From: a virus
Lineage: Duplodnaviria; Caudoviricetes
Virus record (IMG/VR): IMGVR_UViG_3300023213_000432
Span: 224,001-288,000 of that record
Direction: 5' to 3' (one strand)
Length of the DNA: 64,000 nt
In this document: positions 35 to 553 of the stretch, one piece after another
How the letters are laid out: each line of letters opens with the position of its first letter
Numbering within the stretch: position 1 is the first letter of the stretch
Notes under the pieces: model-generated
Database searches by the model: none
Seen by the model: only the letters and a program-made list of their open reading frames with translations
What the model was told of the DNA's origin: nothing
Translations under genes and position numbers: made by a program

Positions 35-43
35 TGATATATA
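35..43 (+). promoter_or_regulatory. Extended -10-like element (TG-a-TATATA) 7 nt upstream of ATG51; probable leaderless promoter
   Basis: The same GATATAT core lies 8-10 nt before the start codons at 2811, 5772, 15413, 37320, 45484 and 1999 (minus strand). Confidence 0.6.
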
Positions 44-50
44 GATCGAC

Positions 51-389
51 ATGAACTCGTAGAACCTCAAACTTTATTTAATTATTCGCAAGGATTTGTC
101 ATCTGGCGCTATCCTCGCTCAAGCTTGCCATGCAGCATTTACATTTAGTTCCGAACATCCTGAAATAGCCAAAGATTGGCTCCTCAATTCCAATTATATT
201 TGCATTTTAGAAATTGATGATGAAGATAAACTTCAAGAATTGTTGGACAAAGCCAGGCATCTTAACATTCCACATTCCTTGTTTATCGAACCTGATTACA
301 ATTATTCTCTTACAGCGATTGCTTTGGCACCTACTCTTGCTAGCAAGAAATTATGTCGTGGCTTGCGATTGGCTTTCAAGGATCAATGA
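51..389 (+). CDS. Pth2-like peptidyl-tRNA hydrolase with in-frame TAG at codon 4 (60-62); 112 aa if read through
   Basis: ATG AAC TCG TAG AAC CTC AAA CTT TAT TTA ATT ATT CGC AAG GAT TTG = MNS*NLKLYLIIRKDLSSGAILAQACHAA...FIEPDYNYSLTAIALAP. KLYLIIRKDL, AQACHAA and EPD..LTAIA match the PTH2-like family. The ORF-track start (TTG96) cuts off the first conserved strand. Confidence 0.8.
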
Positions 390-398
390 TGAAGATTT

Positions 399-470
399 CC
401 GCTCTTGGTATAGTGGCTGTGCTTTCCCATTCTAAACGGGAAAAGCCGTGTTCAAATCACGGAGAGCGGG
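399..470 (+). tRNA. tRNA with CUA anticodon (amber suppressor), no encoded CCA
   Basis: Acceptor CCGCTCT/AGAGCGG; D-stem GTAT/GTGC; anticodon arm TTCCCA-TTCTAAA-CGGGAA with anticodon CTA at 432-434 and an A:C mismatch closing the loop; T-arm CCGTG-TTCAAAT-CACGG; discriminator G470 followed by CTA. Confidence 0.8.
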
Positions 471-478
471 CTAAATAT

Positions 479-553
479 GGGCGATTAGTTCAGCGATAGA
501 ACGGGCAATTCTAAATTGCTGCGTCGAAGGTTTGACTCCTTCATCGCCCACCA
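479..553 (+). tRNA. tRNA with CUA anticodon (amber suppressor), CCA encoded
   Basis: Acceptor GGGCGAT/ATCGCCC; D-stem GTTC/GAAC; anticodon arm GGCAA-TTCTAAA-TTGCT with CTA at 511-513; T-arm GAAGG-TTTGACT-CCTTC; ends A-CCA. Confidence 0.88.

Follow-up and report, generated by a model that had tools for sequence, protein, structure and literature searches.

Candidate programmed amber readthrough of a phage Pth2-like gene located beside two tRNA(CUA) genes

We analyzed a 64,000-nt stretch of phage DNA (hereafter the window), which comprises bases 224001-288000 of a 327,423-bp IMG/VR virus record rated 76% complete. Close to its start lies a small gene for a protein of the Pth2 peptidyl-tRNA hydrolase family, whose reading frame opens with a start codon and two sense codons and then carries an in-frame amber codon (TAG); two tRNA genes with a CUA anticodon follow on the same strand. 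We favor the reading that the Pth2-like protein is made by programmed amber readthrough and so depends on the phage's suppressor tRNAs, and we put its probability at about 0.62. A first-pass annotation of this DNA had proposed that the full-length product requires UAG readthrough. This core claim is well supported by the comparative data: the TAG is conserved, a conserved start signal precedes it, the frame behind it is under purifying selection, the CUA tRNAs covary in their stems, and the standard code is used elsewhere. The features of the gene and its two tRNAs are as follows (window positions).

22..50, plus strand: 5' region directly before ATG51, CTAAT-N4-TGATATAT(35-42)-N8 (comparison with relatives L005 and L006)
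51..62, plus strand: ATG AAC TCG TAG, then A63; start, two sense codons and amber codon (reading of the sequence; relatives)
63..389, plus strand: body of the Pth2-like protein, 108 codons plus TGA (Pfam PF01981, PDB profile matches, AlphaFold2, Foldseek, and the ratio of nonsynonymous to synonymous substitution rates, dN/dS)
399..471, plus strand: tRNA(CUA) type A (ARAGORN; Rfam RF00005, 34.7 bits against a gathering score of 29)
479..553, plus strand: tRNA(CUA) type B (ARAGORN; Rfam RF00005, 57.7 bits against the same score)

The start codon ATG51 and TAG60 are in frame with the Pth2-like body, as had been read before. Frame 3 gives M51-N-S-TAG(60-62)-N-L-K-L-Y-L-I-I-R-K-D-L and runs on to TGA 387-389, so that the gene itself ends in TGA, not TAG, and a second TGA follows at 390-392. 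It was also correct that no ATG, GTG or TTG lies between TAG60 and TTG96, the latter being the first canonical-type start after the amber codon. A start at TTG96 would remove strand beta1 (residues 8-13) from the predicted structure. No canonical start is conserved after the TAG among the homologs examined. No Shine-Dalgarno sequence was found before ATG51, and no significant readthrough-promoting RNA structure was detected around the early TAG (z = +0.6).

The first-pass annotation had named a GATATAT promoter motif upstream of ATG51. The motif itself is there (TGATATATA at 35-43, plus strand), and the promoter role assigned to it is suggested by the recurrence of TGATATAT-N8-ATG. The stretch CTAAT-N4-TGATATAT-N8-ATG is nearly invariant among this phage, L005 and L006, while the third codon positions have diverged. 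Of the 44 TGATATA[TA] sites in the whole genome, seven have an ATG at exactly +8, as against about one at each other spacing, and five of these seven ATGs open open reading frames (ORFs) of 187-361 codons. The TGATATAT-N8-ATG arrangement occurs in the window at 35-53, 2794-2813, 17039-17058, 37303-37322 and 45467-45486, often with CTAAT 3-4 nt upstream. The 5' motif is likely an extended -10 promoter with the transcript starting at the A of ATG51; such an mRNA would be leaderless, which would leave ATG51 as the only usable start. At window 17056-17070 a leaderless-looking ATG opens a four-codon frame (M-G-A-L-stop) whose TGA overlaps the ATG of a 102-codon ORF at 17067 as ATGA, and this mini-ORF looks like one that is coupled to the real start.

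The 5' ends of all retrievable homologs were compared and gave 14 distinct low-GC sequences, including the one described here. In 14 of 14, ATG is followed by one or two sense codons and then by TAG (never TAA or TGA) at codon 3 or 4, with A as the next base, a recurrence far greater than chance would give. We refer to this arrangement as the gate. The codons flanking the conserved TAG vary, with MNS, MQS, MCS, MCL, ML, MT, MK or MS in front of it. The N-terminal readings are given below with the amber codon written as TAG; the last line holds those from huge phages.

This phage, MNS-TAG-NLKLY; L005 and L006, MNS-TAG-NHKLY; L007, MQS-TAG-NEKLY
L008, L010 and L020, MCS-TAG-NDKLY; L017-19, MCL-TAG-NEKLY; L009, ML-TAG-NDKLY
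L011, MT-TAG-IDKLY; L021/22, MS-TAG-IDKLY
LR756500, MK-TAG-INNHKLI; LR756501, MS-TAG-IYKLI; LR756504, MT-TAG-ITKQ

A second TAG is located inside the Pth2-like gene of LR756501, at codon 37. In L007, L008, L010, L011, L013 and L017 the sequence GGAG, AGGA or AAGGA is found 7-9 nt before the ATG of the gate, and this Shine-Dalgarno placement marks the ATG upstream of the TAG as a real start. In a maximum-likelihood tree both branches of the deepest split contain gated sequences, which indicates that the gate is old. The pairwise proportion of synonymous differences (pS) is 0.55-0.84, i.e., synonymous sites are saturated, and dN/dS behind the TAG is about 0.1; it was concluded that the frame behind the TAG is translated and under protein-level selection. 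Since the same TAG is present in 13 independent assemblies, a sequencing error is ruled out. The gate is confined to low-GC phages (locus GC 0.23-0.43), and relatives with a GC content of at least 0.55 are ungated. Ungated genes with ordinary starts are found in Myrna, ScoobyDoobyDoo, Catera, L002, L004, L014 and L023-27, and L016 is ungated as well. Among the high-GC ungated homologs, those of cluster C mycobacteriophages and their relatives (L002, L003, L016, L023, L077) have an in-frame TAG just before a Shine-Dalgarno-positioned start and another start-like codon before that TAG. The layout is ATG-TAG-GTG in Catera, GTG-TAG-GTG in Myrna and ScoobyDoobyDoo, GTG-TAG-ATG in L002 and GTG-TAG-AAG-ATG in L023. 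This NTG-TAG-NTG order may be what is left of the gate, or a form in which the gate is bypassed.

The assignment of the product to the hydrolase family, made earlier from the letters, is borne out by profile and structure comparison. The residues encoded from position 63 on match Pfam PF01981 (PTH2) with 51.6 bits (cut-off 23) over profile positions 1-101 of 115, and the PDB profile matches include 2zv3 (E 4e-7) and 1wn2. The AlphaFold2 model with the TAG read through has a predicted local distance difference test score (pLDDT) of 93.9; the first three residues are disordered, the TAG corresponds to residue 4, and beta1 follows at residues 8-13. The top 13 Foldseek matches in the PDB all belong to the Pth2 family (archaeal Pth2s, the Thermoplasma homolog Ta0108 and human Bit1), with template modeling (TM) scores of 0.67-0.78. 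The His of the AQxxHA helix is kept. The family comprises 3,795 representative clusters at E <=0.001. Homologs in public phage records are mostly found in cluster C mycobacteriophages, where they are annotated as peptidyl tRNA hydrolase.

The two cloverleaf tRNAs noticed in the first reading, each with the 7-nt loop U-U-CUA-A-A, were confirmed at 399-471 and 479-553. They are located on the same strand as the gene and start 9 and 89 nt behind it. Type A has a C1-G72 pair, discriminator G, a 3-bp D stem and a 4-nt variable loop, and its CCA is not encoded; type B has a G1-C72 pair, discriminator A and an encoded CCA. Orthologs of type A are found in L006, L007, L017 and L020, and 11 of 24 pairs show compensatory changes across five orthologs, with CUA invariant. 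For type B, with orthologs in L005 and L006, six of 23 pairs are compensatory across three orthologs. In both types the changes fall in the acceptor, anticodon and T stems, and U33-CUA-A37 is kept. The pattern of substitution indicates that both tRNA(CUA) types are kept by selection as folded tRNAs. In the favored reading they would also be expressed, charged and able to decode UAG. A tRNA(CUA) occurs in the same contig as the gate in this phage, L005, L006 (two), L007, L012, L017-19, L020 and LR756501 (two in tandem, 2.1 kb away), and probably in LR756504. It also adjoins the ungated genes of Myrna, ScoobyDoobyDoo, Catera, L002 and L023.

Other unusual tRNAs lie beside ungated relatives: a UUA (ochre-reading) tRNA in LR745208 (L014:1902-1978), a tRNA with a four-base anticodon call (L027:4410-4485) and tRNA-Ile(AAU) in L004 and L024-L027. 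For the Catera tRNA (NC_008207.1, L077:1802-1875) ARAGORN calls the anticodon CUA and the record says tRNA-Arg. A tRNA-like match at L064:1500-1583 (G002), not called by ARAGORN, has a 17-nt insert in the anticodon arm that is able to form an extra hairpin. A transfer-messenger RNA (tmRNA) gene is located at genome 23279-23637 of the phage described here. Relative L022 also carries one (L022:2548-2902; Rfam, 71 bits), with its gated gene 1.1 kb downstream.

All other genes in the window are intact under genetic code 11, in agreement with the first-pass annotation, and the genome is not generally recoded; it uses the standard code elsewhere. Thirty-six of 400 crude gene models (~9%) end in TAG, with no excess of back-up stops. 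Judged by ORF coverage by code, open frames on both sides and codon-usage scores, there is no TAG-specific excess of stops with coding signal on both sides, and at no TAG is the codon-usage signal strong both before and after it. One candidate in-frame TAG is present elsewhere in the genome, at 33646-33648 (L076:2147-2149), between an SH3-like repeat array and a conserved C-terminal domain. In two paralogs (genome 29855-31051 and 34553-36598) a single ORF encodes both parts. The alignment with them runs through the TAG without a break, and the TAG is matched by Lys (AAA) and Gln (CAA), respectively. The gene with this TAG is either a split paralog or a second suppressor target; no relatives of it were found in viral contigs. 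Three minus-strand candidates for in-frame TAG were rejected as antisense shadows, and in most others an ATG follows the TAG within a few codons. In three more ATG-(1-5 codons)-TAG cases a Met start comes 6-11 codons later, and these cases look fortuitous.

In programmed readthrough, ribosomes would initiate at ATG51 of a transcript that is probably leaderless or tRNA-flanked, and would meet UAG at codon 4. If release factor 1 (RF1) acts there, only a tripeptide would be made; if a phage tRNA(CUA) decodes the codon, the 112-residue Pth2-fold protein would result. Whether the protein is made would in this manner depend on the phage's own suppressor tRNAs being present and charged. The UAG falls in a disordered tail at the N terminus that should accept whichever residue is inserted. 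The next base is A, and a 3' purine favors suppression in E. coli. The codon also comes so early that release on the short nascent chain should be slow or inefficient, so that a weak suppressor could prevail here while doing little damage at the UAG codons that end ordinary genes. The gate could serve as a delay timer, could couple tRNA-recycling activity to suppressor activity, or could provide feedback on suppression. In a doubtful extension of this scheme the enzyme would have as its substrate the suppressor tRNA itself, charged with an amino acid or a short peptide. Being made only if that tRNA reads the codon 4 UAG, it would hold readthrough at a low set point. Were this true, a standard-code phage could use UAG readthrough at chosen early-codon sites with its TAG-terminated genes spared.

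Several observations weigh against programmed readthrough. Aligned with 2zv3 and 1wn2 by HMMER, the phage protein has Ala or Ser in place of the second Lys of GKGK, and the Asp of RDAG is matched by the invariant Glu of an EPD motif. We take the Lys of GKGK and the Asp of RDAG to be the catalytic residues of archaeal Pth2, as in a study of the S. solfataricus enzyme. Because the Lys is not kept and the Asp is replaced, peptidyl-tRNA hydrolase activity is not assured and the protein is named Pth2-like only. High-GC relatives pair a CUA tRNA with an ungated gene, so that protein and tRNA can be linked where the gate is missing. The 472-kb relative L022, rated 100% complete, has the gate and four tRNA matches, none of them CUA, so that the gate is not always accompanied by a recognizable phage suppressor. 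The early stop and the adjacent CUA tRNAs, which the first-pass annotation had proposed to look for together, therefore part company in L022: the stop is conserved in all 14 low-GC sequences and the tRNAs are present in many contigs, but none is detectable in this complete relative. A blastn search of both tRNAs against 50,697 phage records gave no match, and a global comparison with 143 phage tRNAs pointed to no parent isotype, all values being <=0.75 and inconsistent between the two tRNAs. A strong suppressor would be costly, given that about 9% of the genes end in TAG. A search for release-factor genes (PF00472) in the 327 kb of this record, rated 76% complete, gave none.

Other explanations of the gate were weighed against the same data. 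Ribosomes might stop at the UAG of a mini-ORF and restart nearby at a non-canonical codon; no suppressor would be needed, and the tRNAs would be neighbors for another reason. The codon directly after the TAG is ATT or ATA in five gated lineages (L011, L012, L013, L015, L021), and ATT is a known weak start. The NTG-TAG-NTG start-stop-start of the high-GC relatives, the leaderless-looking mini-ORF that overlaps a real start as ATGA (17056-17070), and the lack of a CUA tRNA in the complete L022 point the same way. However, the codon after the TAG is AAC in the window and in eight other lineages, and the next codons (CTC, AAA, CTT and others) are neither starts nor conserved as such. A plain stop would not demand TAG to the exclusion of TAA and TGA in all 14 lineages, whereas a CUA tRNA explains it, and we consider reinitiation unlikely. 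An incipient recoding that has no regulatory role is improbable for another reason. Here the TAG would have become fixed in a tolerant tail once the phage owned a suppressor and would have been read as sense since, a ratchet that keeps the tRNA. The restriction of the gate to low-GC phages favors such a history and fits the published recoding route (10.1101/2021.08.26.457843); the second candidate TAG that aligns with Gln or Lys of its paralogs and the second TAG within the LR756501 gene favor it as well. But a neutral codon would be expected to have given way to ordinary ones in some of the 14 lineages, given their saturated divergence. Neither the TAG nor its place at codon 3-4 varies, and the neighboring codons all change.

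It is quite unlikely that the gate is a sensor of termination status, the stronger proposal of the first-pass annotation, responding for example to RF1 shortage or peptidyl-tRNA load. In that scheme the unread mRNA head would be a minigene like those of lambda bar, shedding tripeptidyl-tRNA, the enzyme's own substrate. The gene head does have the anatomy of a 3-4-codon minigene; the gene in L022 lies 1.1 kb from a phage tmRNA, and the phage described here encodes both tmRNA and initiation factor 3 (IF-3). The feedback loop is not closed by any step, because nothing indicates that the activity of the product influences whether RF1 or tRNA acts at the gate. The sense codon just ahead of the TAG is not constant (Ser, Leu, Thr, Lys), so that no particular tRNA is targeted, and neither a release-factor gene in the 327 kb nor a conserved catalytic Lys speaks for the sensor. 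A broken gene, an assembly error or use of genetic code 15 (TAG read as Gln) throughout is scarcely credible: one gene call in relative L011 was made with TAG=Q, but the same TAG recurs in thirteen independent assemblies, dN/dS is about 0.1, code-11 coding is dense and genes end in TAG. Programmed readthrough by the phage tRNAs is the most likely explanation.

The gated gene is located in a series of genes in the order tRNA-like gene, tRNA-Thr, gated Pth2-like gene, tRNA(CUA) type A, tRNA(CUA) type B and small ORF, with spacers of 7 to 37 nt. The remaining features of this series are listed below.

L001:1323-1350, same strand: sigma-70-like promoter (TTGACA, 16 nt, TATTAT), upstream of the tRNA-like gene (promoter scan)
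L001:1361-1431 (window -140 to -70), same strand: tRNA-like gene with an 8-nt anticodon loop (AUGUGUAU) (Rfam tRNA, 37.9 bits)
1..14 (genome 223942-224014), plus strand: 3' end of tRNA-Thr(GGU) (ARAGORN, Rfam)
561..866, plus strand: co-oriented ORF after the tRNAs (tblastn)

The tRNA-like gene is the first gene of the operon. It has four good stems, is not called by ARAGORN, and may be a quadruplet-decoding or otherwise non-standard tRNA. The ORF at 561..866 has no Pfam or PHROG match. In tblastn searches it is kept behind the tRNAs only in the nearest relatives, L005 and L006, and its membership in the gated unit is uncertain. At window 561-2239 the gene after the tRNAs is split by a TnpB (IS605-family OrfB / Cas12f-like) element on the minus strand (860-1999). 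The 152-residue homolog in L006 matches window 561-806, continues in another frame at 775-861 and resumes at 2090-2236.

To our knowledge, the suppressor tRNAs of standard-code phages have had no known target so far. A single-gene amber gate at codon 3 or 4 beside the tRNAs would give such suppressors a target. If the favored reading is true, it would be the smallest natural case in which a virus-encoded stop-codon reader controls translation, with a single gene, a single codon, and one or two tRNAs involved. It would also be a potential source of natural orthogonal-looking amber suppressors together with a natural readthrough context. The comparison further draws attention to a large phage Pth2 branch with an altered active site that is consistently found with unusual tRNAs (CUA, UUA, odd anticodon loops). 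In a full-text literature search of incomplete coverage, no paper was found that connects phage Pth2 genes with in-frame amber codons or suppressor tRNAs.

Among known systems, the archaeal and eukaryotic Pth2 enzymes (2zv3, 1wn2, 1xty, 3erj and human Bit1, 1q7s) share with the phage protein the fold (TM 0.74-0.78), the Pfam family and the AQxxHA helix. Identity is only 21-28%, however; the phage protein lacks the GKGK Lys, has EPD in place of RDAG, and is phage-borne and encoded inside tRNA clusters. The homologs of cluster C mycobacteriophages (Myrna gp84, ScoobyDoobyDoo gp79, Catera gp153) are closer at 34-42% identity and are also encoded in a tRNA cluster, with a tRNA(CUA) 180-300 nt downstream. 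They differ in having a Shine-Dalgarno-positioned GTG or ATG after the TAG, so that readthrough is unneeded there. The bacterial gene prfB, for release factor 2 (RF2), has an early in-frame UGA that is passed by a +1 frameshift, and its product acts on that stop. Like the gate, it is a conserved early in-frame stop in a termination or recycling gene, and the outcome there decides synthesis. Unlike prfB, the Pth2-like frame is the ATG frame, so no shift of the prfB type is needed; the decoder would be a dedicated tRNA, and the product is not known to act on the gate. In minigenes, shorter frames accumulate more peptidyl-tRNA, which Pth counteracts, and the stand-alone bar minigenes of lambda are toxic in Pth-deficient cells (PMC2490762). 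The gated gene resembles them in its start signal followed by two or three sense codons and a stop, and in the thematic link to Pth, but its short frame runs in frame into a conserved protein.

Recoded phages (crAss-like, Lak and others) read TAG as Gln (code 15) and carry suppressor tRNAs, with tens of late, structural and lysis genes recoded; the proposed route leads from a rare TAG through acquisition of a suppressor to in-frame stops (Borges et al., preprint, 10.1101/2021.08.26.457843). No hydrolase is mentioned in that paper. Metaproteomic data support TAG recoding in phages (PMC9523058). The present case is similar in that a phage tRNA(CUA) is proposed to open genes with an in-frame TAG, the GC content is low, TAG is a rare stop, and in-frame stops may act as timing control. 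Code 15 is recognized by many in-frame TAGs and a TAG unused as stop, a pattern that this genome does not show. In contrast to the recoded phages, the standard code is kept here, about 9% of the genes end in TAG, and the proposed readthrough is limited to essentially one small translation-related gene, with its TAG at codon 3-4 across very distant phages.

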